Sequence record: LR597647
Length of the DNA stretch: 64,000 nt
Strand: one strand, 5' to 3'
DNA from: Escherichia phage rV5_ev147
Shown one piece after another: positions 26,075 through 53,368 of the stretch (position 1 is the first letter of the stretch; each line of letters starts with the position of its first letter). Below the pieces are notes generated by a model. The model saw only the letters and a list, made by a program, of their open reading frames with translations. It was not told where the DNA came from and made no database searches. The position numbers and the translations under genes were made by a program.

Positions 26075-27124
26075 ATGAATTTAACACCTCGCAGAACCAT
26101 GGTACACGGCATGAAAGAAAAACAGAACGGTTTCGAACCTATGAGTAATAAAATGTTTGGTATGCCGGGCGGTATCATGGAAACATACAGCTACCCAACA
26201 CCTGTTGTTGACCACGTTCTTTATATCGACGATTTGGAAGACTTACAAGATCATATGTCTCGTCTGCAGACGATCCGTATGGCTCAGCCGGAAGAAAGCA
26301 TTCGGGTGATCATCAATAGCCCTGGGGGTTGCGTGCACATTGCAATGGCTTATCTGCAGGCATTCCGAGAGTCTCAGGCAAGCGTTGTTGCACATGCTGA
26401 AGGGATGTGCTGCTCTGCTGGAACAATCTTATGGCTTGGTTGTAAAGAACGTACTGTGGCTCCGGACACAGAGTTTATGTTCCACTACTATCAAGGTGGC
26501 ACTTATGGTAACGGTGTGAACATGAATACTCAGGTCAGCTACTGGAAAAAACGTTTTGAACGCCTGATCGAAAAATACTACGGTGGGGTGCTGACAGAAG
26601 ATGAGATCGCATCCATCACAGCTGGTGGCGAAGTGTGGTTGGACGGAGAAGAGCTGGCAGCACGCACTGGAGCTATTATTCTGGATGAAGGCAACATACA
26701 ACGCATCCAGAACGGACAAAAACCGAAAAAGCTTCTGGCAAAAGGTGATGAAGAAGGCGTGTTAGGTGAAGCAGGTCTTCCGGAGATTCACCAGTGCACA
26801 TCTTTAGATGAGTTAGTTCATGCTGTTGAATCTGCAAAAGCGGGTGGTTCGAAAGGTGATGTTCACACTGTGTTCCTGAATCTGCAGATGGAAAGTGGCG
26901 AGACCGTCAGAATTGCCCTGAGTGAGATTACTTCAGAAGATCTGCAGAGATTCTCTGTCGTTGAACTTCAGGATATTCTGTCTCAATTGAAGACTACTCT
27001 GAACGGCGGTGAAGAGGTTAAGGTGAAAGATAAGACTCGCAAGCGTCTGGTGGACAATATTATTAAAACAGCAAAAGAGCTCAATGAAAAAATCCTGGGT
27101 GCAGGAATTGTCGAAGAAGCTTAA
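26075..27124 (+). CDS. ClpP-like serine peptidase with C-terminal extension
   Basis: INSPGGCVH and GMCCSAG resemble ClpP active-site regions; 349 aa. Confidence 0.55.
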   Translation: MNLTPRRTMVHGMKEKQNGFEPMSNKMFGMPGGIMETYSYPTPVVDHVLYIDDLEDLQDHMSRLQTIRMAQPEESIRVIINSPGGCVHIAMAYLQAFRESQASVVAHAEGMCCSAGTILWLGCKERTVAPDTEFMFHYYQGGTYGNGVNMNTQVSYWKKRFERLIEKYYGGVLTEDEIASITAGGEVWLDGEELAARTGAIILDEGNIQRIQNGQKPKKLLAKGDEEGVLGEAGLPEIHQCTSLDELVHAVESAKAGGSKGDVHTVFLNLQMESGETVRIALSEITSEDLQRFSVVELQDILSQLKTTLNGGEEVKVKDKTRKRLVDNIIKTAKELNEKILGAGIVEEA

Positions 27125-33454: not shown

Positions 33455-33484
33455 TTGACACAACGCTTCAGATTTAGTATCATT
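33455..33484 (+). promoter_or_regulatory. Sigma70-type promoter upstream of hpf
   Basis: TTGACA (33455-33460), 18-bp spacer, TATCAT (33479-33484). Confidence 0.45.
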
Positions 33485-33530
33485 GTTTTAAAAGAGGGTT
33501 TGGTTCCCTCTTCTTTAAAAGGAACACGTT

Positions 33531-40806: not shown

Positions 40807-40852
40807 TGACATAATGGTGACATAACTGACACGATTGACATAATTGACATGC
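40807..40852. repeat. Five tandem TGACA(T/C)(A/G) boxes at about 10-bp phasing
   Basis: TGACATAA at 40807, 40818, 40836 and variants at 40827, 40845. Confidence 0.7.
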
Positions 40853-40936
40853 CTGACTGTTCACGCTCTCATTATTCCCGCCCTTACTATTCACGCCCTT
40901 TACTGCTTACATTCTTGATAGTCTACATGCTTAATG

Positions 40937-40992
40937 GTTTACATGACTAATAGTTTACATAGCTAACTGTTTACGCATAAACTGTTTACACA
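40937..40992. repeat. Four GTTTAC(A/G) iteron-like repeats at 15-16 bp spacing
   Basis: GTTTACATG 40937, GTTTACATA 40953, GTTTACGCA 40969, GTTTACACA 40984. Confidence 0.7.
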
Positions 40993-41002
40993 GATATGAT
41001 AA

Positions 41003-41302
41003 GCCATGCCATTCGTTTGCATGATAACAATAACGATCAACAACAATAAAGACTGAAATGATAACGTTGTTGATTTGACTGACTAACAATTAACAGGCTA
41101 ATAATCTATGACATAATATAAAAGCAGGGCAACTATTAGCAGATCTATAGTTGCCTTGCTTGTTATGTCATGATTAACTAAATACAAGGCAACTATGATC
41201 TGATTAATAGTTTGCAGACAAACTATCACGGGGGTGATGGTTACTGCTTTTATATTATGTCGCGACTCCGTCGCGCCATGCCATTCGTTTGCATAGTTGC
41301 CT
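41003..41302. repeat. Composite repeat locus: 20-bp direct repeat, 18-bp inverted repeat and GGCAACTAT palindromes
   Basis: GCCATGCCATTCGTTTGCAT at 41003 and 41275; GACATAATATAAAAGCAG (41110) with exact reverse complement at 41244; GGCAACTAT/ATAGTTGCC palindrome at 41128-41155. Confidence 0.75.
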
Positions 41303-41955
41303 TATTGTTACAGATAAAATAATTGTATTGTTAATTATTTCTTATCTTTCTATTAGTCATCTAATGATTCCAGTTAGTATAGTAACGTACAGTAAACATT
41401 AGACGACTAAAGATTTCTCTGATTATGATAACTTGCCGTGACAATTTCAGACTGTTTACGAAAAATGTTGACACCTGAGCTGATTTATGTTATGCAATTT
41501 AAACGAATAATTATTTTATGCAGGTATTGACTATTCTGTTATTCTATGGTCGGAATAAATACTTAGCAGGCTATAGAATGGTGAGCGTACGTAAATTCTG
41601 AGATCTGTCGGCTATAGTTATACTCGATTTTTCACGTAGAACACGCTTTTTGGTTTGTGTAAGTGTATGACTTATAAAGATTTTTAGTTGTTGACAAGAT
41701 ATTGAAGATGTGCATCAGGTTAAATTTTGTGCAATAGCTGCATTACGTGCAATTTTGGAAGGAAAACGGGTAAAAATAGCACCGCTACCACACAATGAAA
41801 GGTTATGCAATAGTTATTTTACATGTATATTTGTACAGTGTGTGGGATTGATGGCTCGTCAATTATTCCACTTGCCAGGTAGGGCCGTTTATGGTAGGGA
41901 GGAAGAGCAGACAAAAAGAAAGGGACCTAAGCCCCTTGATAATTCAGTTAAAAAA

Positions 41956-42375
41956 TTATAATGATTCGTATATTTCAAAAATCCGATTTGCCAGGTCGTT
42001 ACGGTACCGGAATTTTTCATCACGTTTGATCATAAGATCTTTATAGCCGTACTCTTTAAGCACTTCATTAACTTTATGGCGGCACACCTTCATATTATCC
42101 TGAGCGTCACCAATAAACCTGTTGCTATGGTGCATGGCTTTAATTTCTTCTTCCAGGACCAGGGCAACTATGCGGACCGGATCAAGCTGATAGGCGGTAA
42201 CATCCATGCGGCATTGTAAACGGCTTTTTACGTCTGCCACCGGATATACTGCAACCTCTTCCCCGTCAACATTGACAATAATTAGTTTACCATCGATTTC
42301 GAATCCTTTCGCCGCCGGACCGTGACAAAAAGCGTTATCAAAGCTATATGCCGGATTATTAGATTTAATGTTCAT
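41956..42375 (-). CDS. Hypothetical protein
   Basis: 139-aa ORF with minus-strand promoter 42424-42452 and SD upstream. Confidence 0.45.
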   Translation of the reverse strand: MNIKSNNPAYSFDNAFCHGPAAKGFEIDGKLIIVNVDGEEVAVYPVADVKSRLQCRMDVTAYQLDPVRIVALVLEEEIKAMHHSNRFIGDAQDNMKVCRHKVNEVLKEYGYKDLMIKRDEKFRYRNDLANRIFEIYESL

Positions 42376-42423
42376 GGTGTTTTTACCTCTTAGTTAATTT
42401 TCTTACAACTTCCCTTCAAAAAA

Positions 42424-42452
42424 GAATATAGCAAAACTGCCGATCCCTGTCA
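42424..42452 (-). promoter_or_regulatory. Sigma70-type promoter (minus strand)
   Basis: On minus strand TTGACA (42452-42447), 17-bp spacer, TATATT (42429-42424). Confidence 0.5.
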
Positions 42453-42518
42453 ACCAGGGATAGCATAATTTTTATGTGATCAAGGGGCTTTAAGCCCCTG
42501 ACCGTGCACCTTGTTGTA

Positions 42519-42782
42519 TTATTTGTTGCTCATCCAGTTTTCCCAAGCTGCCTGATAATCTGCCTCACTACGGCGGATCTCTTCTTGCTCTTCAAGTCGG
42601 ATCTCTTCTTCCAGGTACCCCAAGATGTCAGCCTTTTTGGTCTGGCGTAGCATCCAGTCATCTTTTTTGCGAGTGAAGATCTTATAAGCTTTCTCGCAAA
42701 CCTCTTTTTTGCTACCTTTCTGGACTTCAAGAACACGATAAGCCATATATTGAACTAATTTGAGCTGATCAAGGCGTTTCAT
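42519..42782 (-). CDS. Hypothetical protein
   Basis: 87-aa ORF; 5' hairpin GGGCCaaaaGGCCC then AAAGAGGAAAAA SD. Confidence 0.45.
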   Translation of the reverse strand: MKRLDQLKLVQYMAYRVLEVQKGSKKEVCEKAYKIFTRKKDDWMLRQTKKADILGYLEEEIRLEEQEEIRRSEADYQAAWENWMSNK

Positions 42783-42844
42783 GATGTTTTTCCTCTTTAT
42801 GTGGTTTTTGTTTAGTGGGCCTTTTGGCCCGTGTCATTATCTTA

Positions 42845-43117
42845 TTACTTACGGCGGCAGAATTCAAGCGTTTTTAATTGATAATCTTCCTCAGCCTGGA
42901 GTACAACCGCCTCGATCATTTCGTTGGCATTGTTGAAGCCATATCCTTTAGCGAATTCATCCGCACCACCTTCGTGATCATGTTCTGCGTTCATCGCTTC
43001 CACGAAATGGAATTCAAGATTATTGAGATAAGGGCTTGATGTTCCGTCCTCTTTTTCGATGAGATCCCAAATAGCATTGAAACGTGATTCAACTTCTTGG
43101 TTAATCCAGCTTAACAT
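42845..43117 (-). CDS. Hypothetical protein
   Basis: Start refined to ATG 43117 (GGAAGAGAGG SD); minus-strand promoter TTGACA-18-TAGCAT at 43202-43173. Confidence 0.45.
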   Translation of the reverse strand: MLSWINQEVESRFNAIWDLIEKEDGTSSPYLNNLEFHFVEAMNAEHDHEGGADEFAKGYGFNNANEMIEAVVLQAEEDYQLKTLEFCRRK

Positions 43118-43329
43118 GGCGTTTTCCTCTCTTCCGGTTGTTGTGTGGGCGCTTTTGCCCCCTTCGAGATAAATGCTACCCCACCACCTGGCAGATGTCA
43201 ACGGTTTTTATAGTTTTTATATAGCAGGCACACCCGGTGATTGTCTCCCCCCGTCGCCAGGTGCCTGCCGTGAAACAAGTATAACAAAAAACAGGACCAT
43301 TGCAAGCCCTGTTTTGTAGTTTATAAGGA

Positions 43330-43521
43330 TTATATTTTTTCGCCTATGTAGTCCGGTCGGTTTTTCTCTGTCATGCGCTTTAGCAATTCTTGCATGTTAC
43401 TTATGGCTTGTAGTGTATCCCCTTCCAGGCTTGAATCGACATAATCAGGATCGTCTATGACCTTTCTATGATTATGATAACGCAGTACCGCCAATACCTT
43501 TCTAACTTGTTCGATATTCAT
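43330..43521 (-). CDS. Hypothetical protein
   Basis: 63-aa ORF. Confidence 0.3.
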   Translation of the reverse strand: MNIEQVRKVLAVLRYHNHRKVIDDPDYVDSSLEGDTLQAISNMQELLKRMTEKNRPDYIGEKI

Positions 43522-43670
43522 TTTTACCGCTCTTTAAAACAAGGTGCCAACCGTTTCCAATAGATCACTGACTACCAGGACAATACCGATCAGTACATAC
43601 CTAACCATAAGGAGAAAGAGCGCCAGCGATCCCGCCACAATCCCCAAGGTGATGATTATCTTTCTCATGG

Positions 43671-43955
43671 TTAACGGTTTACGTAAGTTTTCCCGTTTAC
43701 GGTGATGGGCAGATCCTCCAGGTCTGGATCTTCCTTAAGGTCGCGAGCAAGTTCACCGCACCGGACACCCTCGAATCCGTAGTACTCTGTCGTGCCGTCC
43801 TTAAAAGTTTTAGCGGCAAGGCATAAGCGATAAGTAACCCCGATTCGATTGACGGCATGAATATCCGTTAGATTAACCTCTTTTGCCAGCTCTTTAGCCA
43901 TTACAGGCGCATTAAGTCCAACAACCAGGGCAACCACTGCGATCATCTTTTTCAT
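43671..43955 (-). CDS. Small secreted protein
   Basis: Signal-peptide-like MKKMIAVVALVVGLNAPVMA. Confidence 0.45.
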   Translation of the reverse strand: MKKMIAVVALVVGLNAPVMAKELAKEVNLTDIHAVNRIGVTYRLCLAAKTFKDGTTEYYGFEGVRCGELARDLKEDPDLEDLPITVNGKTYVNR

Positions 43956-44046
43956 TGTGTCTATCCTCTTTCTGCTACGTTTAAGGCGGCGGTAACCGCC
44001 TGTTTATGCTTTGTTGGTTAATTTTCGGGTATCGGTATAAATTAAA

Positions 44047-44262
44047 CTATGCTGTACGCTCAACTATAACAACGGTTTGAGGGATCTCACCTTCCACCAC
44101 TATCAAGGCCTTTTTCTGCGTGATGGATATCTTTGCCCGTTGCAGCGTGGCGGTGAAGTCTTTCATTTCGTCACGTGGTGTTTTAGTGCAATACCAGATC
44201 TCAGGCTTGCCGATCTGTAAGTTGCGTAAAAATTCCGTTTTGCCTGTTTTGTTAGTGATCAT
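44047..44262 (-). CDS. Hypothetical protein
   Basis: 71-aa ORF. Confidence 0.35.
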   Translation of the reverse strand: MITNKTGKTEFLRNLQIGKPEIWYCTKTPRDEMKDFTATLQRAKISITQKKALIVVEGEIPQTVVIVERTA

Positions 44263-44271
44263 TTGCCAACC

Positions 44272-44376
44272 TCACCCGATACCGTTGGAAGACAAGATCA
44301 CATTAGCCATGGTTGCAATCAGGCCAATACCCAGGGCAATAACCAGGATCACCGCATCAATTAATTTCTGTTTCAT
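44272..44376 (-). CDS. Small hydrophobic peptide (34 aa)
   Basis: ATG 44376 after GAGGAAAA SD; MKQKLIDAVILVIALGIGLIATMANVILSSNGIG; below ORF-track cutoff. Confidence 0.35.
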   Translation of the reverse strand: MKQKLIDAVILVIALGIGLIATMANVILSSNGIG

Positions 44377-44466
44377 TTTGTTTTCCTCTTCTTGTTCCAG
44401 GTGGCGGACCATTCCACCGCCTTATGTATTATGCTTTGTAAGATGGTTGTTTGTTTTCAAACTATT

Positions 44467-44646
44467 TTAACGATAATCATCGTACGCTTTATTAACCTGG
44501 CGAATATAACATTCAAAAGCCAGATCAATAGATTTATATTCACGGATATACTCACCATAGGAAACCACATACATTTCTATAGCTTCCTCATATGCGAGGA
44601 GAATAGAATCCAAGCCTACGATCTCAGTCTTTGCAATAATAGCCAT
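44467..44646 (-). CDS. Hypothetical small protein (59 aa)
   Basis: ATG 44646 after AGAGGATAAAAA SD; below ORF-track cutoff. Confidence 0.35.
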   Translation of the reverse strand: MAIIAKTEIVGLDSILLAYEEAIEMYVVSYGEYIREYKSIDLAFECYIRQVNKAYDDYR

Positions 44647-44717
44647 GATTTTTATCCTCTTTGTGGTTGGTGGGGCTTGCCCCTTTGATTTATATACTAC
44701 AGTCTTATATGGTCATG

Positions 44718-44951
44718 TCAACTATTTTCAAAAAATTTTTCTGCTGTGATATTTTTCCCGGTAGGGTTCGCTACTTTCAAAATTTTATCATGCACTGGAC
44801 GCCCAAAAGAATAAGCGCCGTACACAGTACACCAATAATCGCCGTCAGGCTGTACTATTACCGCCGCATAGGGTACGCCTTTTTCGTTTTTGCTGACAAA
44901 ATAGATCACGTTGCCATTAATAGCCTCGGCGCGTTTAATTTGTTCCATCAT
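44718..44951 (-). CDS. Hypothetical protein
   Basis: 77-aa ORF; 5' hairpin GGGGCCgaaaaGGCCCC and AAGAGAGG SD. Confidence 0.45.
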   Translation of the reverse strand: MMEQIKRAEAINGNVIYFVSKNEKGVPYAAVIVQPDGDYWCTVYGAYSFGRPVHDKILKVANPTGKNITAEKFFENS

Positions 44952-45006
44952 GATGATTTGCCTCTCTTTATTTTCATAATTGGGGGCCTTTTCGGCCCCG
45001 CCAGGT

Positions 45007-45291
45007 TTATTTGTTGATAGCGTGCAGCGGGAAAGGTACGCCAGGTTGATAGATAACTTTTACAACCTCATCAGGGCAAAAGAAATTACAAAATTCACCC
45101 TGATAAGCCTCATCCTCTTTTAATTCTTCATCAACATACTGGAAAAAGTAGTCAATGCTTGGATAATCCTGACCGGGATTATATTCAACCATGGTTAATA
45201 ACAATTCTTGATCATTCCGTATGATATGCATACCAGCTTTTAAGTATTTGGCTTCCATTTCTACTACATCGCCAACGGTAACAATAGCCAT
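45007..45291 (-). CDS. Hypothetical protein
   Basis: 94-aa ORF. Confidence 0.4.
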   Translation of the reverse strand: MAIVTVGDVVEMEAKYLKAGMHIIRNDQELLLTMVEYNPGQDYPSIDYFFQYVDEELKEDEAYQGEFCNFFCPDEVVKVIYQPGVPFPLHAINK

Positions 45292-45498
45292 GGTTTTAAC
45301 TCCTATCTATCCGGTTAATGATTGGAGGCCTCACCGCCCCCCCGACACCCTTTATTATCCATATTGTAGGACTTGATGCAAGTACTTCTTTAAAAATTTT
45401 TTAAGCGCCTTGGGGGCCGCTGTAACGCCAAAATAATAAAGGCTATGCAACCGCATAGCCTTTATGTGATTATATCGCTGCAGGCCCTGCCAGGGGCC

Positions 45499-45849
45499 TT
45501 ATTTTGCATTCTTTCCTATATTGCCGCTACGGTACCAGCGTTTACGGTGAAAATGGTAATAATCACCATCGGCATTAAACATCAGATGATTTTCAATAAC
45601 CAGCTTACGAAGGTGGGCCGGATCTTGTTCCATTCTTGCCAGATTCTGGCGGCTGTTACGTAAGCGGATAAATTCCATATTCAGGCCGTTGATTGCAGCA
45701 TGGATGTCAAAGTAACCACCTTTGAGACGTTCACGCATGGAGTTAAGCTCAACACAATATACAGATTTCTCACAAATCAAGGTATTAGCCAGGGCGCGGA
45801 CCTGGGCAAGGGGGTTAAGCTCATTAAGGTAATATAGTTTTACTTTCAT
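45499..45849 (-). CDS. Hypothetical protein
   Basis: 116-aa ORF. Confidence 0.4.
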   Translation of the reverse strand: MKVKLYYLNELNPLAQVRALANTLICEKSVYCVELNSMRERLKGGYFDIHAAINGLNMEFIRLRNSRQNLARMEQDPAHLRKLVIENHLMFNADGDYYHFHRKRWYRSGNIGKNAK

Positions 45850-45866
45850 AAAATCACCTGCTGAAA

Positions 45867-46172
45867 TTAGTTTGAGAAAACATCGTTCACAATAGCGATC
45901 ACAATGCCGCCCACCTTGTCACGGTCAACAATGCACAAATCACCATAGATCATGTGGTAGTCTGGATGATCTTTCACGGAATAATCAATGAGTGTTTTCT
46001 TGTCATCCAGCTTACTAACTTCCATTCTCATAACGATATGAGAATCATCAAAGGCATTATTCCGAAAAGTCATAACCTGACCGCCAGGGCACCCGGTGAT
46101 TTCCACCTCCACGCCGTCTACGATCTGACCATCAAAGAAATAAAGATTATTAGCCTGGATAAACATGATCAT
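45867..46172 (-). CDS. Hypothetical protein
   Basis: Start refined to ATG 46172 after AAGGAG; driven by 44-bp repeat copy 1. Confidence 0.4.
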   Translation of the reverse strand: MIMFIQANNLYFFDGQIVDGVEVEITGCPGGQVMTFRNNAFDDSHIVMRMEVSKLDDKKTLIDYSVKDHPDYHMIYGDLCIVDRDKVGGIVIAIVNDVFSN

Positions 46173-46210
46173 TACTCCTTTTTGCACTGATTATTTTAAC
46201 AGGGTTTAAA

Positions 46211-46254
46211 TTTACTTTATTGATGGCCCTGGAGTCAAGGCCATCTAAAAATAA
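46211..46254 (-). promoter_or_regulatory. Conserved 44-bp element copy 1: promoter-like with palindrome around -35
   Basis: Exact 44-mer TTTACTTTATTGATGGCCCTGGAGTCAAGGCCATCTAAAAATAA; on minus strand GATGGCC-TTGACTCCAG-GGCCATC then 18 bp to TAAATT. Confidence 0.5.
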
Positions 46255-46257
46255 ATT

Positions 46258-46458
46258 TTACAGGCCTACAATCTCTTTAATTCGTTTTACTGCTGCCTCA
46301 GCGCCTTGAGGGTAAAAATTATGGTAACCAATCACGCGAGTGATACTAATCGCCGTTTGATGATCTTCATAATCACCTTTAAAGATTTCTTGACCGTCAA
46401 TCAGCACGGCAATTTTTTCTTCTTTTTTGAAGTTAATAACGCGGATATTGTTGCTCAT
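46258..46458 (-). CDS. Hypothetical protein
   Basis: 66-aa ORF; 5' hairpin GGGGAGacaCTCCCC and AAGGAG SD. Confidence 0.4.
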   Translation of the reverse strand: MSNNIRVINFKKEEKIAVLIDGQEIFKGDYEDHQTAISITRVIGYHNFYPQGAEAAVKRIKEIVGL

Positions 46459-46552
46459 TTTGTTTCTCCTTTTGGAACTTTGTCTATGCGGTGGGGAGTG
46501 TCTCCCCGTTGATTGTTATTATCCATATTCTGGATCGGATTGCAACACTCAG

Positions 46553-46594
46553 GGAGAAAAAAATTTGAAAAGTTAGGCCCCAGGGATCGGGGCC
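46553..46594 (-). terminator. Rho-independent terminator (minus strand)
   Basis: On minus strand GGCCCC-gatccct-GGGGCC followed by TAACTTTTCAAATTTTTTT. Confidence 0.5.
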
Positions 46595-46598
46595 GTTA

Positions 46599-46718
46599 TC
46601 AATTACTTACAGCGATAAAATACATCCCTACGCCTAACAATATTTCAAGGGCGATGATCTCAAGCCATACCATAACACGGCGCGCCTTATCGGTGCGGGG
46701 CTTATCCTTGGGTGTCAT
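46599..46718 (-). CDS. Small hydrophobic peptide (39 aa)
   Basis: ATG 46718 after GAGGAAA SD; hydrophobic core; below ORF-track cutoff. Confidence 0.3.
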   Translation of the reverse strand: MTPKDKPRTDKARRVMVWLEIIALEILLGVGMYFIAVSN

Positions 46719-46937
46719 CGTCTCCCCCTTTCCTCCTGTTAGCAGTGACGTGGTTTGCAATGGCCCCCAGGAGTATTATCACCACGCACATTACAAGAAA
46801 AATTATCTCTGTCGTTGTTCGATCCATTGTTATAAAATTCCTTAAGATCAGGCCTGAAAATAAAGCTTTCGTTATTGAATCCATCCCGCCAGGCGGCTGG
46901 CTTCAAATCTTCACTAAAGGGGTTAATTAACGTGGCA

Positions 46938-47309
46938 TTATTTAAACGGCTGGTCCACATATTTTCTATTCCTCTCAAATAGGCGATCCGCCTCAGTTAA
47001 ACAAATCTCATGGGCGTGATCTCTGGTTTTAGCTTCATCGAAAACCTGTTGTGCAAGGCTGCAACGTAGGGAGACTGGAAGATCGCTGTAGTAGGCGTTG
47101 ACAAATGTTTGAGCGTCGTACAGGTCTGAAAATACTTTACCCTTTCTATTATTCCCCTTGTCAACAATTGCAAGGATAACAAGTACAATAGTTGCAACCA
47201 CCCCCAGGAAAATAGATATAATAAACCATAAAAAAGCGGATCTACCCATCTTGCCAGCGATCCAGGCGTTGAACAAGGCAACTACTACAGCCAAAATAAT
47301 AAATTCCAT
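46938..47309 (-). CDS. Membrane protein (two TM helices)
   Basis: Start refined to ATG 47309 after AAGAGG; MEFIILAVVVALFNAWIAG...FLWFIISIFLGVVATIVLVILAIV. Confidence 0.45.
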   Translation of the reverse strand: MEFIILAVVVALFNAWIAGKMGRSAFLWFIISIFLGVVATIVLVILAIVDKGNNRKGKVFSDLYDAQTFVNAYYSDLPVSLRCSLAQQVFDEAKTRDHAHEICLTEADRLFERNRKYVDQPFK

Positions 47310-47373
47310 TCTATGTACCTCTTTTGCAGTTCTGTTTAACAATAAGGCGGCAAATATGCCGCCTGTTACCTGA

Positions 47374-47754
47374 TTAAAAAATATCGCCGTAAATCTTTCC
47401 GCTTTCTGCCCACACCACCACGCGGGGCATGTTATCCCATACATCTTGTTTCAGATTTAACGCGTGCAATTCTTCGGTGGTGCTCATACCGGGCACGGGC
47501 TGATTGTATACTGCAAAACGACCGCCTGCATAATCATAGGCCAGAGTTAAATCACACTGGATCATCTTTTTGATCATGGCGTTAAGCATAGCGTTAGCCG
47601 CGTACTGGTCACGTTTTAAAGGCAACTCTTTGATTAGTTTGCGATAGTTTTCGATATGGTCGCACACTGTTTCACGTGGAAGATCTTTCATATCTTCACG
47701 GAATGTAACCAGGTTAAACATAACGGTGTCAATAGCTTTAGTAGTGTTTTTCAT
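47374..47754 (-). CDS. Hypothetical protein
   Basis: Start refined to ATG 47754 after AAGAGGAAAA. Confidence 0.45.
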   Translation of the reverse strand: MKNTTKAIDTVMFNLVTFREDMKDLPRETVCDHIENYRKLIKELPLKRDQYAANAMLNAMIKKMIQCDLTLAYDYAGGRFAVYNQPVPGMSTTEELHALNLKQDVWDNMPRVVVWAESGKIYGDIF

Positions 47755-47844
47755 GATGTTTTCCTCTTTGTTTTGTGGGGGGCAAGTCATCTCGCCCCTT
47801 GAGTTTTTAATATAGCAGGTTTTTAGATTATTGCAACACTTTAT

Positions 47845-48468
47845 TTATGAAAAACTCATCTCCCCATATTCATCCACATCAAACCGCCAATCATTGGCTT
47901 CAATAAGGCCGATCAGGTTTTCGGTAGTAAACTGTTCAAGATAGGCCTCCTCCAGGTCTACGTAAACCTTGCGGGATAGCTCCCGTACCGTCTCGGTGAT
48001 CAGCTCTTCCAGCTCTTCAACTTTGTCCTCTTGCTTGGTGGTCAGGTCTAGCCAATTAGTATCGATGCACCCTCCTATTGTGTTTTCGTGATGATAATGG
48101 CTAAACGGGATACGTTCAACACTGGCTGATAACTCGCCATCGTGCATTGTGCCGAACAAGTGACGAATTGATCGGAACTTGGTCAGGGCCTTTACTTTAC
48201 GCAAGAATTTTTCTAAATCCACGTTTTCAGCACTGATTGACGCGCCATCGCCTTGACACCAAAAGCCGGACCAACGTACTTCGGTATCTTCAAGGCCGTA
48301 CTCTGGAAAGACATATTCTTTATAGTGTTCAATTACACTTTCTGCAAAAAAATTATCCCCGCTGTGTTCTTCTCTTTCGCGGACCATTTCAATAGCTTTT
48401 TCTTTTTGTTCGTCGGTCAGCACGTCGAAAGATAAATTGTAACCTGTGGTAATGTTAACGGTGGTCAT
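47845..48468 (-). CDS. Hypothetical protein
   Basis: 207-aa ORF; promoter TTGACA-16-TATACT, 5' hairpin GGCGGGAAaactTTCCCGCC, AGGAG SD. Confidence 0.5.
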   Translation of the reverse strand: MTTVNITTGYNLSFDVLTDEQKEKAIEMVREREEHSGDNFFAESVIEHYKEYVFPEYGLEDTEVRWSGFWCQGDGASISAENVDLEKFLRKVKALTKFRSIRHLFGTMHDGELSASVERIPFSHYHHENTIGGCIDTNWLDLTTKQEDKVEELEELITETVRELSRKVYVDLEEAYLEQFTTENLIGLIEANDWRFDVDEYGEMSFS

Positions 48469-48542
48469 GATATTTTCTCCTATTTTCTTTGTTAGTGGCG
48501 GGAAGTTTTCCCGCCTGTGTGTTTAAGTATACTTATCGAGAT

Positions 48543-48803
48543 TTACTTGTCAACACTATTTTTTAAATTATTGTGGCGTAAAATGTTCAAGATCTCTTCA
48601 ACGTCATCAACACGGCGGCAATTTTTAAACGCTACCAGTTGCCCCAGTATTTTAATCACTGGACGGCCTTGCCAGTGCCCTTGGAGAAAGCGAGCTTTAA
48701 CTTTATCGGTGGAACTATCACGCCACCAAATGGCCTTGTTGTTGCAGTAGTAAAAATTATTCAGGACAACATCAACTTTATCAAAATTTTTTAATTTACG
48801 CAT
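48543..48803 (-). CDS. Hypothetical protein
   Basis: 86-aa ORF. Confidence 0.4.
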   Translation of the reverse strand: MRKLKNFDKVDVVLNNFYYCNNKAIWWRDSSTDKVKARFLQGHWQGRPVIKILGQLVAFKNCRRVDDVEEILNILRHNNLKNSVDK

Positions 48804-49045
48804 GGCGTTTACTCCTTTCTCTCTTTGATGTGGTTAGTATAGCTAACCTGTTTAAGATGTCAAGCTTTAAATAAAATCACTGTCAATGATATTTTTAACG
48901 CCATAAAACGGCCCTAAGCGATGTTTTCAGGTTAAAGGGGGGGCGATTGCATAGGTGGGGCCTTTTTGGCGCTTACAGGGCCAACCGGGGGCGCTATTCG
49001 TAGGATAGAAATAAAAAGCCCCGCACAATGGCGGGGCGTTGGTTG

Positions 49046-49243
49046 TTATTTGCCTTTGTGGCGGTATCGTTCCGCCTGTCGTTCACGTTCCAAAAGCAGG
49101 CCCGGTAATTTGCGATCATAATGATTCCGCCAGATCTTCCCAAATCTTTTTGGCTTATTCAGTTTATTGTTGCGCTGGCGGCGTTCCGGCAGCTCTTCGG
49201 AAGCATGAGATCGCTTTACAATCTTCTCAAAATTAATCTTCAT
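49046..49243 (-). CDS. Hypothetical basic protein
   Basis: Start refined to ATG 49243 after AAGGGGGG; Arg/Lys-rich. Confidence 0.4.
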   Translation of the reverse strand: MKINFEKIVKRSHASEELPERRQRNNKLNKPKRFGKIWRNHYDRKLPGLLLERERQAERYRHKGK

Positions 49244-49297
49244 ATATTCCCCCCTTGCTAACTTCAATATTGGCCTGAATAGCCCGGATACGGCGCT

Positions 49298-49585
49298 TTA
49301 TAACTTCCTGATCTGTGTGATCGTATCCCAAAAGTCTACGATTTTTGCGCCTCCAGCCTTTAGGCGGTATAGTGTTTCTTGCATCTTGTAAGCCGGGATC
49401 GGTCGCGGTGTTACCTGGTCGCCCTTCTCATTCTTGTACTTGATAATATAGTCTTCATTGTCGTTGAATACCCAAAACGGGTATTCTGTAAGGGCGTTGC
49501 TATCTTTTTCGTTTTTAGATTGGATCTTGTTTACAATTAAAGCCGTAGCAATAGCGCCAATAATAAAACTTGCCCCGCTGATCAT
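49298..49585 (-). CDS. Membrane-anchored protein
   Basis: Start refined to ATG 49585 after AAAGGAGAAAG; N-terminal TM ISGASFIIGAIATALIV. Confidence 0.45.
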   Translation of the reverse strand: MISGASFIIGAIATALIVNKIQSKNEKDSNALTEYPFWVFNDNEDYIIKYKNEKGDQVTPRPIPAYKMQETLYRLKAGGAKIVDFWDTITQIRKL

Positions 49586-49660
49586 GTACTTTCTCCTTTC
49601 ATTGTATTGATAAACTATCTTTATAGATGGCCCTGCTACCAGGACCACCGAAAAAACAGC

Positions 49661-49906
49661 TTATTTGACGATACCGACAAAACAGATCCCGCCTTCCCCT
49701 ATATAGGCAATATCGGTAATTTTATAATTTGTCAAGATCCGCGTGTTCAGATCATTAATAAAATCGGTCATCGCGTTGGTGTAGTTGTCTTCCGTGTCTA
49801 AGGCATAATCCCAGGTGTACACCTTTTTACGTCCGAAGCCTTTTACCATGATACGGGCGCTTTTGGTGTTGGTAGGGGCATAATATTTGGTGATTAGTGC
49901 TGCCAT
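49661..49906 (-). CDS. Hypothetical protein
   Basis: 81-aa ORF driven by 44-bp repeat copy 2; TAGGAG SD. Confidence 0.45.
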   Translation of the reverse strand: MAALITKYYAPTNTKSARIMVKGFGRKKVYTWDYALDTEDNYTNAMTDFINDLNTRILTNYKITDIAYIGEGGICFVGIVK

Positions 49907-49949
49907 GGTTTTAACTCCTATGCATTAGTTCAGTGTTAACAGTATAAAG

Positions 49950-49993
49950 TTTACTTTATTGATGGCCCTGGAGTCAAGGCCATCTAAAAATAA
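49950..49993 (-). promoter_or_regulatory. Conserved 44-bp element copy 2
   Basis: Identical 44-mer to 46211-46254. Confidence 0.5.
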
Positions 49994-49995
49994 TC

Positions 49996-50337
49996 TTACT
50001 CGTTTTCTTCCAGTTCTGCAAGCTCTTCTTTTGCTTCTTCTAACTCTGTCTGTAATTCCTGGTATTCTTCATCGTCCTCAATATCCAGGCTGTCGATGTA
50101 GTCGCTAAATCCGCAGCGGTAAGCGATAGGATCTAGCTCCTTGAGGATACGCGACGGAAGAAAAGAAATGTTTCCGATCATAATTTCGCCGTAGATCTCG
50201 TCTAACCATTCATCATAGTTTTCGTCGTACTTGTCCTCGTCGATTTCAAAGTTATCGATCTTGTTCTCAAGGTCTGCGATCTGTTTTTTCAGTGCGGCGA
50301 TCTGAATAGCTTTTTCTGCGGCGGTCATAGTAGTCAT
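49996..50337 (-). CDS. Hypothetical acidic coiled-coil protein
   Basis: 113-aa ORF; promoter TTGACA-16-TATACT and 5' hairpin GGGAAaactTCCC upstream. Confidence 0.45.
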   Translation of the reverse strand: MTTMTAAEKAIQIAALKKQIADLENKIDNFEIDEDKYDENYDEWLDEIYGEIMIGNISFLPSRILKELDPIAYRCGFSDYIDSLDIEDDEEYQELQTELEEAKEELAELEENE

Positions 50338-50416
50338 GGTGTTTTCTCCTTTTGTGTGCTCTGGGAAGTTTTCCCGTTTACGTGTTTAAGTATATCAATC
50401 TAAGTTAGCTTGTCAA

Positions 50417-50536
50417 TTAAAAATTTAAGAAAAATTTTGCAAAACTGTTAGCGCTACTCATTAACATTTGCGCCAGGATGTAACCGACAACGCAGGCGAT
50501 AATAGTTACCTTTGTGTATTGGCGTGTAGTGCTCAT
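50417..50536 (-). CDS. Small hydrophobic peptide (39 aa)
   Basis: ATG 50536 after AAGGGGG; MSTTRQYTKVTIIACVVGYILAQMLM...; driven by 44-bp repeat copy 3; below ORF-track cutoff. Confidence 0.35.
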   Translation of the reverse strand: MSTTRQYTKVTIIACVVGYILAQMLMSSANSFAKFFLNF

Positions 50537-50570
50537 CTTAAAGCCCCCTTTTTCGCTTAGCTGAGATTAA

Positions 50571-50614
50571 TTTACTTTATTGATGGCCCTGGAGTCAAGG
50601 CCATCTAAAAATAA
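50571..50614 (-). promoter_or_regulatory. Conserved 44-bp element copy 3
   Basis: Identical 44-mer to 46211-46254. Confidence 0.5.
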
Positions 50615-50616
50615 AT

Positions 50617-51021
50617 TTAGTAAGTTTTAAGTACTTTACCGTCTAACCTGTCAAGCTGGATCTCAATAGCTGCAGAGAATCTATTGTACACCACATCGCC
50701 CATAGAATCCAACCAGTCTATGACATTATACACTTGCTCTTTGTTCTTGCAGGTCCGGATCCGTTTCATGATGTAAGCCGGATCAATATTGGTACTCTCG
50801 TTGGTGCTCCCCTGTACCTGGTTTGCCGTATTAGTTACATCTTTAATGGCCTTTACCACCACCTGGAATGGCTTTAAGGTGCCTTTTGCGTTCATCTCAC
50901 GCGCTTTTGCGGCGCGGTTGTTATATGTTACACAACGGCGGCAAATGTTGATCAAATGCATGTCAATAATTTTTTCATCGTTTGCCAGTTCATTCATGAT
51001 GCGGCGTACGTTCTTATTCAT
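50617..51021 (-). CDS. Hypothetical protein
   Basis: 134-aa ORF; 5' hairpin GGCGGGAAtgtTTCCCGCC and SD upstream. Confidence 0.45.
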   Translation of the reverse strand: MNKNVRRIMNELANDEKIIDMHLINICRRCVTYNNRAAKAREMNAKGTLKPFQVVVKAIKDVTNTANQVQGSTNESTNIDPAYIMKRIRTCKNKEQVYNVIDWLDSMGDVVYNRFSAAIEIQLDRLDGKVLKTY

Positions 51022-51103
51022 GATCTTTTTCCTTTGTGTTGGCGGGAAACATTCCCGCCTTTTGTGACTAGTTTACTTGAATTTTGCAGCGTGTCAACAA
51101 TTT

Positions 51104-52239: not shown

Positions 52240-52440
52240 GTGACGGGGAGACAACCACCGGGGATGGGCGCTGCATAAAATGAGAACGGTTATCATTATC
52301 GTCTAAAAATTTATGCAAAAACTTCTTGCTTTCTTTGTCCTGTGTGTTACTATAATAACAAGCCGGGGCAGTAGGGGCCGGGAGACAATCACCGGGGGTG
52401 CCCGTTATTCTGCAAACGAGAATGATTATCATTCAAAATT
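52240..52440. repeat. Two tandem diverged GC-rich units, each followed by an ATGAGAA/GAGAATGA box
   Basis: GGGGAGACAACCACCGGGG (about 52248) and GGGAGACAATCACCGGGGG (about 52383), each followed by ...TGAGAA...TTATCATT; ATGAGAActtttCTCATTTC hairpin at about 52445. Confidence 0.6.
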
Positions 52441-52566
52441 CTAAATGAGAACTTTTCTCATTTCATAAATTTAGTTAGCATGCTAATTACCTACCGTGAC
52501 AATTCTATATAAAATAATACCTCCTAAAATATTTCCATATACAAATTTTAAAAATCCATTTCCGAA

Positions 52567-52718
52567 AACGAAAAATCGCTTTCGTTCCCAAAAATTTTAG
52601 ACCTGGTGCTGGACCAATTTCAAGAAAATCCGATTCAGAAAACGAAAAACAGATCGAGTACTGAGAAGTTTATCGAGAAAAATTTTCAGAAAATTCAATC
52701 TTTGAAACGAAAAACAGA
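52567..52718. repeat. GAAAACGAAAAA direct repeats in a non-coding stretch
   Basis: GAAAACGAAAAACAGATCGAGTAC at about 52637 and 52695 (24 bp, exact); related GAAAACGAAAAATCGCTTTCGTT palindrome at about 52567. Confidence 0.6.
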
Positions 52719-53038
52719 TCGAGTACCTAGAAAGCTGCACCGCAATTTCAAGATGGTGGTTAGATTATTACCATAAAAGGTCAAGGGTGAGTGGGAAAGT
52801 TCTGGTAGAGGGGTGTGAGCATACGCGGAAAATCTAGAATGGTAGTCCGGAATATGGTGCAAACGATAGGATGAGTGGTTCAGCTCGTCGTGCCTACTCT
52901 GAAAAAATCCATTTTAGTTTTCGATCCATTTTCTGATTTTCTAACAATTTTAAAATATCTGGCCGGGTGAAATATCAAAAGGAGGAAATCCATTTTAGAA
53001 ATCCTCCTTATACTTGATATGTCAGAAATTTTCAAGTA

Positions 53039-53368
53039 TCAGCTATCTTTGTTTTTAGGTTTATACATGCGGAGAGGTATAGTCTTTGTAACATTCCATT
53101 TACTCAACCCTTCCCAGCTCCAGTTGTGGGCATGGTATCCGGTTATGCATGCACTGCTGGAGTGATCGTAAGCATAAGAGAACGCTAAGCGCACCAGGTG
53201 AGGCCAGTCTTTCCACGGTTGTGGTCCGTAAGCTTTTCTCCAACACCGACACAAACTAAATGTCTCAAGAATAGGCAGGATAACAAATCCATACACCGCC
53301 ACCAGAATAGCCAGCGCAATGATTGTCAGGAATACATACCCTGCAGTTGAAACGATGATCTCTGTCAT
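53039..53368 (-). CDS. Membrane protein
   Basis: N-terminal TM segments IIVSTAGYVFLTIIALAILVAVYGFVILPI. Confidence 0.45.
   Translation of the reverse strand: MTEIIVSTAGYVFLTIIALAILVAVYGFVILPILETFSLCRCWRKAYGPQPWKDWPHLVRLAFSYAYDHSSSACITGYHAHNWSWEGLSKWNVTKTIPLRMYKPKNKDS

Follow-up and report, generated by a model that had tools for sequence, protein, structure and literature searches.

What purpose is served by the short GC-rich hairpins that stand between strong promoters and small genes in the early region of rV5-like phages? The question is raised by a window of 64,000 nucleotides (nt) from Escherichia phage rV5_ev147 (LR597647), in which the segment 41,956-51,100 (9.1 kb) carries about 26 small genes. 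As a sequence-only reading of this window had noted, many of the encoded proteins are smaller than 100 amino acids (aa; 18 of about 26) and several are hydrophobic, as read directly from the translations. The same reading placed a hairpin at the 5' end of each mRNA. On balance, and with moderate confidence, we favour modular cassettes that resemble the PeSLs, promoter-early stem-loop cassettes of T4-type phages: the hairpin would start at about position +4 of the cassette's own mRNA and probably block 5'-end-dependent decay, and the repeats shared between cassettes would supply homology for shuffling. That the segment consists of repeated, probably recombining cassettes of this type, in several positional classes, had been overlooked.

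Promoter-hairpin units at the distal end of the early block

The segment is 100% identical to Escherichia phage rV5_ev156 (LR694165.1), a Vequintavirus, and 92-98% identical to many further Vequintavirus genomes; the window corresponds to about 64-128 kb of LR694165.1. GC skew and annotation delimit a plus-strand block up to about 40 kb of the window and a minus-strand early block between about 64 kb, where DNA polymerase and helicase are encoded, and 41,956, of which the segment forms the distal end. All intergenic gaps of 30 nt or more on the minus strand were tabulated, each with its best sigma-70 match and all simple hairpins. A sigma-70 promoter followed by a GC hairpin precedes eight minus-strand genes, corresponding to 8 of about 26 genes and 8 of 19 such gaps. 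The arrangement ascribed at first to most of the small genes, a promoter, a hairpin within about 10 nt and an AGGAG-type Shine-Dalgarno sequence (SD), holds for these eight (10-13 nt; AGGAG or GAGG) and not for the rest. The units are listed below, with z for the folding of the predicted 5' untranslated region (UTR) against dinucleotide shuffles.

43115-43201, minus strand: promoter TTGACA-17-TAGCAT (43201-43173), hairpin 43162-43147 of the GGGGGCaaaaGCGCCC type, CA-rich linker, SD and ATG 43117 of a 90-aa gene (42845-43117); UTR folding energy (dG) -10.8, z -1.7
44644-44721, minus strand: promoter TTGACA-16-TAGTAT (44721-44694), hairpin 44683-44672 GGGG-caag-CCCC (GGGGC-aacaa-GCCCC in relatives), SD, ATG 44646
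45289-45382, minus strand: weaker promoter (C)TTGCA(T)-16/17-GATAAT with the -10 box ending at 45354, hairpin 45341-45324 GGGGGC-ggtgag-GCCTCC with one G.U pair, SD, ATG 45291; z -0.1
46456-46545, minus strand: promoter TTGCAA-16-GATAAT (46545-46518), hairpin 46507-46493 GGGGAG-aca-CTCCCC, SD, ATG 46458; z -3.2
47752-47836, minus strand: promoter TTGCAA-16-TATATT (47836-47809), hairpin 47798-47779 GGGGCGAG-atga-CTTGCCCC, SD, ATG 47754; z -3.6
48466-48553, minus strand: promoter TTGACA-16-TATACT (48553-48526), hairpin 48515-48497 GGCGGGAA-aac-TTCCCGCC, SD, ATG 48468; z -5.2; a 54-nt repeat is shared with 50363-50416
50335-50416, minus strand: promoter TTGACA-16-TATACT (50416-50389), weak hairpin 50375-50363 GGGAA-aac-TTCCC, SD, ATG 50337; z -1.1
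51019-51097, minus strand: promoter TTGACA-16-TAAACT (51097-51070), hairpin 51059-51041 GGCGGGAA-tgt-TTCCCGCC, SD, ATG 51021; z -3.8

The unit promoters conform to TTGACA-16/17-TAnnnT with 9-11 of 12 matches and are preceded by A/T-rich tracts of the aaaaatag type. Table S4 of the rV5 paper lists the same promoters (P164, P168, P174, P185, P186, P192, P194 and others) together with 20 terminators, and lists no 5'-UTR hairpins. The near-consensus minus-strand promoters named by the sequence-only reading are indeed present, at 42453-42425 (TTGACA-17-TATATT, one base from the position given), 48553-48526 and 50416-50389 (both TTGACA-16-TATACT). The first of these is nevertheless no example of a unit: it has no hairpin downstream, and the hairpin 42461-42443 overlaps its -35 box. 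Likewise, two of the four hairpins then cited, GGGCCaaaaGGCCC (42830-42817) and GGGGCCgaaaaGGCCCC (44999-44983), directly follow stop codons without a recognisable promoter; half of the cited hairpins are thus not downstream of a promoter and therefore not 5'-terminal on a primary transcript.

Between the -10 box and the start of the hairpin lie 10 nt in five units and 12-13 nt in three, while the distance from hairpin to ATG varies between 18 and 34 nt across the eight. The first distance being fixed and the second variable, the hairpin is tied to the transcription start and not to the ribosome site. A pyrimidine-purine step 7-8 nt after the -10 box is the predicted transcription start, and in six of the eight UTRs folded from it the hairpin forms at +4, behind about three unpaired 5' nt, leaving the linker and the SD open. 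The linker from hairpin to start codon is unstructured and rich in A and C (54% A, 20% C, 8% T), and contains an SD of the AGGAG/GAGG type. Compared with dinucleotide shuffles, four of the eight UTRs fold significantly better (z = -3.2 to -5.2). The idea of a hairpin at the mRNA 5' end is therefore in keeping with the geometry of these eight units, given a predicted start about 3 nt ahead of the hairpin, the lack of a U-tract and the selection on stems described below, and not for half of the hairpins on which it had been built.

The spacing is not random. Of the eight strictest promoters in 41.9-51.2 kb, four have a hairpin that begins 9-13 nt after the -10 box, where hairpin density predicts 0.21 (P = 3e-5), and the same enrichment is found in phAPEC8 (P = 8e-4) and in EmilieFrey (9 of 22 strict promoters against 0.45 expected, P = 2e-10). 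Across 45 unit calls at ten loci, the commonest offset after the -10 box is 10 nt (21 of 45). With a definition of the GC hairpin that treats both strands alike, the density is 5.3 per kb in intergenic and 1.0 per kb in coding sequence, a difference of about fivefold. The stems of the hairpins next to promoters and genes measure 4-10 bp, and the energies of these hairpins range from -5 to -16 kcal/mol. The G-rich arm comes first in all ten 5'-UTR hairpins (10/10, P = 0.002), which is a strand-specific property. A similar arrangement was seen on the plus strand at about 33455-33530, in a small-gene block (P144 of rV5), where TTGACA-17-TATCAT is followed after 8 nt by the hairpin AAGAGGG-tttggtt-CCCTCTT, an SD and an ATG.

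Could the stem-loops instead be attenuators or terminators that isolate each cassette from upstream transcription, the role given to them, and partly tested, in T4-type phages? One RB49 stem-loop reduced lacZ expression as strongly as rrnB T1 (PMC2839356), and the segment does include ordinary T-tailed terminators (41937-41920, 43315-43288, 45465-45436, 46594-46576, 47364-47345 and 49037-49018), which are those listed in Table S4 for rV5. The eight +4 hairpins, however, lie within the transcript of their own promoter, so that efficient termination would kill the expression of their own gene. As the sequence-only reading had observed, they are not followed by T-tracts: the next 8 nt hold 0-3 T, here as after three promoter-less hairpins, which falls short of the U-tract of intrinsic terminators. 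A +4 hairpin without a U-tract is not a sensible terminator, because the transcripts of its own promoter would stop too, and a fixed 10 nt from the -10 box is unnecessary for ending upstream transcripts. Attenuation as the function of the stem-loops is on these grounds unlikely. It is plausible for the other hairpin classes, listed below, since those that follow stop codons (42830, 44999) or lie over a -35 box (the 50-nt repeats, 42461) form only on read-through RNA.

42817-42830, minus strand: promoter-less hairpin GGGCC-aaaa-GGCCC, 17 nt past the upstream stop and 34 nt before ATG 42782
43984-44001, minus strand: promoter-less hairpin AGGCGGT-tacc-GCCGCCT, upstream of a 94-aa gene
44400-44421, minus strand: hairpin GGCGGTGG-aatggt-CCGCCACC in the 5' UTR of a 34-aa hydrophobic open reading frame (ORF) with probable true ATG 44376; the promoter is decayed in the window and intact in the phAPEC8 orthologue (TTGACA-17-TAAAGT)
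44983-44999, minus strand: promoter-less hairpin GGGGCC-gaaaa-GGCCCC, 9 nt past the upstream stop
46209-46258, minus strand: 50-nt repeat, copy 1; hairpin 46245-46222 GATGGCCTTG-actc-CAGGGCCATC enclosing the -35 box TTGACT; putative -10 box TAAATT
49613-49662, minus strand: 50-nt repeat, diverged copy (68% identity); hairpin 49649-49626 GGTGGTCCTG-gtag-CAGGGCCATC
49948-49997, minus strand: 50-nt repeat, copy 2; hairpin 49984-49961 over the -35 box TTGACT
50569-50618, minus strand: 50-nt repeat, copy 3; hairpin 50605-50582 over the -35 box TTGACT
42425-42461, minus strand: P164, TTGACA-17-TATATT (42453-42425); hairpin ATCCCTG-gttga-CAGGGAT (42461-42443) over the -35 box
48832-48863, minus strand: promoter TTGACA-16-TATACT (48863-48836); weak hairpin GGTTAG-ctata-CTAACC (48848-48832) over the -10 box, the position of RB49 PeSLs
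41920-41937, minus strand: terminator, T-tailed hairpin AAGGGGCTTAGGTCCCTT, partner of the 42503-42478 hairpin in a cassette-level indel
42478-42503, minus strand: hairpin GGTCAGGGG-cttaaagc-CCCTTGATC

The 50-nt repeat, with its 10-bp hairpin, is thus present in three near-identical copies and one diverged copy. The GAAAA pentaloop of hairpin 44983-44999, unchanged in six of six relatives, resembles lambda boxB; with no boxA-like sequence nearby, the resemblance is probably a coincidence. Lambda-type nut/boxB sites were likewise rejected as an identity for the hairpins at large: no boxA was seen, the loops vary over 3-8 nt, and a GAAAA loop occurs in this one hairpin only. The hairpin at 44400-44421 touches an annotation, since the start given in the rV5_ev156 record for 44272-44412, at 44412, falls within it, and the SD-supported start at ATG 44376 yields the 34-aa hydrophobic peptide.

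Selection on stems and probable exchange of cassettes

Sixteen hairpins were compared with their orthologues in seven Vequintavirus relatives by counting distinct changes per alignment column. Stems accumulated 0.083, flanks 0.19 and loops 0.46 changes per column (stem versus flank, P = 5e-5; loop versus flank, P = 2e-6), and all 27 variant orthologues fold at the same place (27/27, dG -6.9 to -18 kcal/mol). The stems are under purifying selection and the loops drift, with changes such as aca to gctaa, tgt to aaca and caag to gcaacaag. Stem changes that preserve pairing include G.U to A-U in the 47798 hairpin and C to U, giving a G.U pair, in the 42830 hairpin and in one copy of the 50-nt repeat. 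A compensatory change from C-G to T-A distinguishes the P164 hairpin of the window (ATCCCTG/CAGGGAT) from that of five relatives (ATCCTTG/CAAGGAT), and in the phAPEC8 orthologue the 44001 hairpin is built of different pairs (GGGCG-gtaa-CGCCC) upstream of a homologous gene. Paralogous units have unrelated stem sequences. A MAFFT alignment of 31 paralogous hairpin units was out of structural register, and paralogue covariation was set aside for the orthologue comparison, because such a count is circular on hairpins chosen for their pairing.

The cassettes share repeats of 20-54 nt, which cover promoter and hairpin or SD and ATG. For cassette-level REARRANGEMENTS, six indels were identified against six relatives, and in five of the six at least one breakpoint lies in a hairpin or in an SD-ATG repeat. 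In nimi and ECML-10, a 139-aa gene and its promoter (41936-42482) are absent; the two GGGGCTTA hairpins that flank them elsewhere survive as a single hybrid, in which the 42503-42478 hairpin is fused to the 41937 terminator. Four relatives contain an inserted 81-aa gene between 32-nt direct repeats made up of SD, ATG and first codons (44361-44392), and three carry a 103-aa gene in place of the terminator at 43289-43328. In nimi, 621 nt with two promoter-hairpin cassettes, bearing stems of the phAPEC8 type, stand in place of 44318-44451. A 116-aa gene (45509-45874) is missing in two relatives, with one end of the indel at a hairpin, and a deletion of 48041-48483 extends from within a gene to the SD of that gene. 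This pattern matches the PeSL shuffling model and is supportive of it, although not decisive. Similar patches occur elsewhere in the segment: an identical 20 nt, ATAGGAGTTAAAACCATGGC (SD, spacer, ATG and the next two bases), is found at 45287-45306 and 49902-49921 before unrelated genes, and leaders of the ACAAAGAGGAWAAAAATCATG type precede four further genes, such patches flanking the inserted gene of the relatives (44361-44392).

Repeats and junctions of this kind also suit the view that the hairpins have no function in expression and are either passengers of spreading repeat cassettes or DNA structures that promote recombination. The 54-nt and 50-nt repeats are common to cassettes, indel junctions fall within hairpins, including the nimi/ECML-10 hybrid, and a recombination role was proposed in the PeSL model (PMC2839356). 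Passengers, however, would not be expected to show selection on pairing, to which stems more than twofold more conserved than flanks, drifting loops, and compensatory and pair-preserving changes all point, nor to keep their distance from the -10 box over four genera despite unrelated stems. We consider this view very improbable.

Recurrence in other phages and a possible role in mRNA decay

The same layout recurs in three further genera, which include Stephanstirmvirinae and are represented by phAPEC8 (Phapecoctavirus), EmilieFrey (Justusliebigvirus, phi92-like) and Salmonella phage PVP-SE1 (Seunavirus). The phAPEC8 units consist of TTGACA-16/17-TAnnnT, 10 nt (gtatCACrTA), GGGCGGCA-atgg-TGCCGCyC or related stems, and an SD; EmilieFrey has at least 12 units in 9 kb, mostly with GGCGGGAAA-tgg-TTTCCCGCC; and in PVP-SE1 the stems are of the GGCCGGGGA type. 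The hairpin family is present in 3-6 copies per genome in about 110 records from these phage groups. Histograms of the hairpin offset peak at +10..+14 in rV5, phAPEC8 and EmilieFrey, with a second class at -40, whereas RB49 peaks at -15 with zero at +10, and PVP-SE1 has both kinds.

One of these hairpins already carries a label. The 20-mer GTAGGGCGGCAATGGTGCCG is annotated in the phAPEC8 record (NC_020079) as 'putative promoter determined with PHIRE'. It occupies +1..+20, 10 nt past a consensus sigma-70 -10 box and about 20 nt before the ATG; lying between the -10 box and the SD, it leaves no room for a separate promoter, and a repeated 5'-UTR hairpin has probably been misread as one. A motif, GTAGGGCGGCAATGGTGCC, is common to phAPEC8 (locus L002, 11233-11252, 12648-12667 and 13879-13898) and PVP-SE1 (locus L012, about 26360-26400), which belong to different subfamilies. 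The PVP-SE1 copy has a truncated 3' arm, so that here sequence is kept beyond the needs of pairing.

Dominant families raise the question of whether the hairpins are recognition sites of a phage factor, be it a regulator or antiterminator that binds RNA, a recombinase that binds hairpins, or a repressor with an operator at +4..+22. Each genome has its own prevailing type (GGCGGGAA(A)..TTCCCGCC in rV5 and EmilieFrey, GGGCGGCAATGGTGCCGC in phAPEC8, GGCCGGGGA..TCCCCGGC in PVP-SE1), GTAGGGCGGCAATGGTGCCG is repeated identically in phAPEC8 and recurs in PVP-SE1 with a truncated stem, and a G.U strand asymmetry is absent. The lac operator occupies +4..+22, the very position of these hairpins. Yet stems differ widely within one genome (GGGGAG, GGGGCGAG, GGGG, GGCGGGAA), and whole-cassette duplication explains the sequence families. 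The loops, at 3-8 nt, are the fastest-evolving part and change between orthologues, which would be intolerable for a dimeric operator in double-stranded DNA; the G-rich arm is always first, which is unexpected for a symmetric operator; and there is neither a boxA nor a conserved GNRNA-type loop as in lambda nut sites. A recognition site is, in our judgement, quite unlikely. A lac-like palindromic operator in particular was rejected, as half-sites and spacing vary between units and orthologues and the G-first polarity is uniform.

A bolder variant, to which we would give no better prospects, makes the +4 hairpin the cis-acting tag of mobile, integron-like early-gene cassettes, its families (GGCGGGAA, GGGCGGCA, GGCCGGGGA) each being matched to a lineage-specific factor. 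Such a system would be shared by unrelated large myoviruses (T4-type, rV5-type and phi92/phAPEC8-type); as such a factor one may imagine either a structure-specific recombinase, by which cassettes are moved, or a regulator that binds RNA and sets the time of early expression.

Two further explanations are hardly credible, namely that the hairpins terminate antisense (plus-strand) transcription or that they are RNase III processing sites. Three of them are flagged as terminator-like on the plus strand, with moderately T-rich tails (48497-48515, 51041-51059 and 46489-46511), but most tails are not T-tracts (TGTGTGTTTA and GTTGATTGTT in the window, TACGTGGTAA in EmilieFrey). RNase III needs roughly 20 bp of double-stranded RNA, and stems of merely 4-10 bp are far below this, making the processing once suggested for the hairpins unlikely. 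Neither explanation accounts for the fixed spacing to the sense promoter. Among other candidates, a Q-type pause site was rejected because the initial transcript is without a -10-like element, and N4-type hairpin promoters because a sigma-70 promoter is there already and these phages have no RNA polymerase in the virion.

The reading we favour, protection of the mRNA 5' end within modular cassettes, may be set out as follows. A cassette would consist, in this order, of an A/T-rich tract, a strong host sigma-70 promoter, a G-first GC stem-loop, an A/C-rich open linker, a strong SD and a small gene. The hairpin would form on RNA, at the predicted extreme 5' end of the cassette mRNA, and its position makes action at the RNA level likely. 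In E. coli, 5' stem-loops are stabilising because a single-stranded 5' end is required by both RppH and RNase E (PMC3997798), and the phage hairpin would similarly hinder RppH and 5'-end-dependent entry of RNase E, so that early-gene expression would be prolonged and standardised. On read-through RNA from an upstream cassette, the same hairpin may act as a 3' barrier or punctuation point, a role that would also explain hairpins without a promoter or over a -35 box. The shared patches of 20-54 nt would provide homology for recombination by which small genes are inserted, deleted and swapped. The rV5 protein gp11 is a predicted Srd homologue (PMC3606486), and in T4, Srd stimulates the action of RNase E on host mRNA (PMC4980113). 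Where RNase E is activated by the phage itself, shielding of the phage mRNAs would, we infer, be an advantage.

Several observations weigh against this reading. A literature search for transcript mapping in rV5-like phages found no mapped 5' ends. In four of the eight UTRs the fold is weak relative to shuffles (z = -0.1 to -1.7), and strong early promoters of the same block (51563, 51844, 54411, 55044 and 59707) have no hairpin. Similar hairpins persist without a promoter at 42830, 44001, 44421 and 44999, and a 5'-terminal role therefore cannot be the only function of those hairpins. Sense and antisense folding energies show no consistent G.U asymmetry, with mismatches in both senses, and thus do not favour an RNA over a single-stranded DNA structure. 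The three unpaired 5' nt may still permit some RppH action. Each genome has one or two hairpin sequence families, which duplication explains and a sequence-specific factor also fits. Finally, selection alone would leave intergenic breakpoints even if recombination were random.

If correct, the reading would mean that the PeSL principle is not limited to T4-type phages and is a general plan of large virulent enterobacterial myoviruses, and that stem-loops have a second use, protection from decay at the 5' end of their own mRNA and not termination. It would link phage manipulation of RNase E by Srd-like proteins to the design of phage mRNAs, correct annotations (the 'PHIRE promoters' of phAPEC8, the wrong start codon at 44412), offer compact natural promoter-plus-leader parts for expression, and mark the sites of gain and loss of accessory genes, probably with anti-defence or host-takeover functions, in therapeutic rV5-like phages.

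The gene content and surroundings of the segment complete the description. Ten of its proteins were tested: none of the ten has a Pfam family, their PHROGs matches are to groups of unknown function only, and neither resource gave a pointer to an RNA-binding or regulatory partner among them. No tRNA lies in 41,956-51,100, and an Rfam 15 scan of 41.5-53 kb at a permissive threshold returned a single, chance-level hit, with 33 bits where the gathering score is 94. A strongly hydrophobic ORF of 44 aa at 43534-43668 is unannotated in rV5_ev156 and listed as ORF 170 in rV5. Within the gene at 49298-49585, a 1-bp indel at about 49298-49300 separates the window from LR694165.1: the ORF ends at 49298 after 95 aa in the window and is annotated with 117 aa, overlapping the next gene, in LR694165.1. 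Judged from the two sequences, this is a frameshift or a sequencing error in either of them. Between the convergent plus- and minus-strand blocks, about 1.1 kb (about 40850-41950) has low GC content (0.387 in 40-42 kb) and no convincing ORF, and ends at the terminator 41937-41920. On the other side of the segment, 606 nt without a gene between minus-strand genes (52434-53039) contain repeated AAATCCATTT motifs and three direct repeats of roughly 52 nt (52542-52593, 52616-52667 and 52681-52732) with the core GAAAACGAAAAA. This is probably the 'non-coding' box of the rV5 genome map; given the iteron-like layout, it may be a replication origin or serve in cis in another way.

Comparison with known systems

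The closest relatives of the cassettes are the PeSLs, strong sigma-70 promoters combined with polyG/polyC stem-loops, which were described first in RB49/phi1 and then in further T4-type phages; the groups concerned are RB49/phi1, T4/PST and KVP40/nt-1 (PMC2839356, PMC4122927). They precede small genes of unknown function in hyperplastic regions and fall into five positional subclasses: upstream of the -35 box, over it, between the boxes, over the -10 box, and just before the start site. The roles proposed for them are those of terminator or attenuator and of recombination linker (PMC2839356, PMC4122927). RB49 cassettes, read directly, show the aaaatagTTGACA context, a CA-rich linker and an SD, with a hairpin, GGGAGTA-gtaaga-TACTCCC, that spans the -10 box.

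The likeness is extensive. In both systems an A/T-rich tract precedes a strong sigma-70 promoter, in a common 'AAAATAGTTGACA' context, and a polyG-then-polyC stem-loop, a CA-rich linker and an SD with ATG are present. The genes served are small, have no known function and lie in a hyperplastic early region whose gene content varies between relatives. Both occur in several positional classes, rV5 too having hairpins over the -35 box (42461, the 50-nt repeats) and over the -10 box (48848), and in both the cassettes are where indels between close relatives have their ends. Homology between rV5 and RB49 extends to some cassette genes, as seen from a direct pairwise comparison of the 90-aa protein (36% identity) and from the notes of record NC_011041; a protein search at default threshold did not list this RB49 homologue.

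The differences concern host lineage, position and evidence. The phages on the rV5 side belong to the Vequintavirinae and Stephanstirmvirinae, whereas the PeSL phages are T4-type (Straboviridae). The dominant rV5 class lies 10-13 nt after the -10 box, past the predicted start (+4), and is absent from the RB49 sample; its stem-loop belongs to the predicted mRNA of its own cassette, whereas the modal RB49 hairpin spans the -10 box. The +4 geometry therefore argues for a role at the 5' end and not for the terminator role assigned to PeSLs. Terminator activity, and mini-circles formed by recombination between cassettes, belong to the account given of the PeSLs.

For such a role at the 5' end, precedents are the 5' stem-loops that stabilise E. 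coli mRNAs such as ompA and papA, known from the work of Emory, Bouvet and Belasco (reviewed in PMC3997798). The arrangement is alike, with a short, stable hairpin a few nt from the 5' end (here predicted), an unstructured leader and a strong ribosome site, and the conserved stems and free loops of rV5 accord with a function set by structure, whatever the sequence. Those examples, however, are single cellular genes with measured half-lives, whereas in rV5 a repeated element is spread over many genes and the 5' end is predicted. Among phages, T7 offers the class III (phi10) leader used in pET vectors. Like the predicted rV5 units, it has a phage promoter, a stem-loop with the G-rich arm in front at the start of the transcript, and a strong ribosome site behind it. 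It differs in its use of T7 RNA polymerase and its presence in one or few copies, and is not known to take part in cassette shuffling.

As accessory genes that are expressed autonomously and inserted between other genes, the cassettes also recall morons, with their own promoter and terminator; morons, however, are without flanking conserved repeats and have classical terminators, whereas the rV5 cassettes stand in tandem and share linkers. The PHIRE features of phAPEC8 (NC_020079), which the record calls phage-specific promoters, are the same objects as the cassette hairpins described here. No earlier description of these hairpins was found in the literature searched on rV5-like phages, and the cassettes are best classed as a PeSL-like system of phages that are not T4-type. 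Their dominant hairpin position is distinct and implies that the primary function differs as well.

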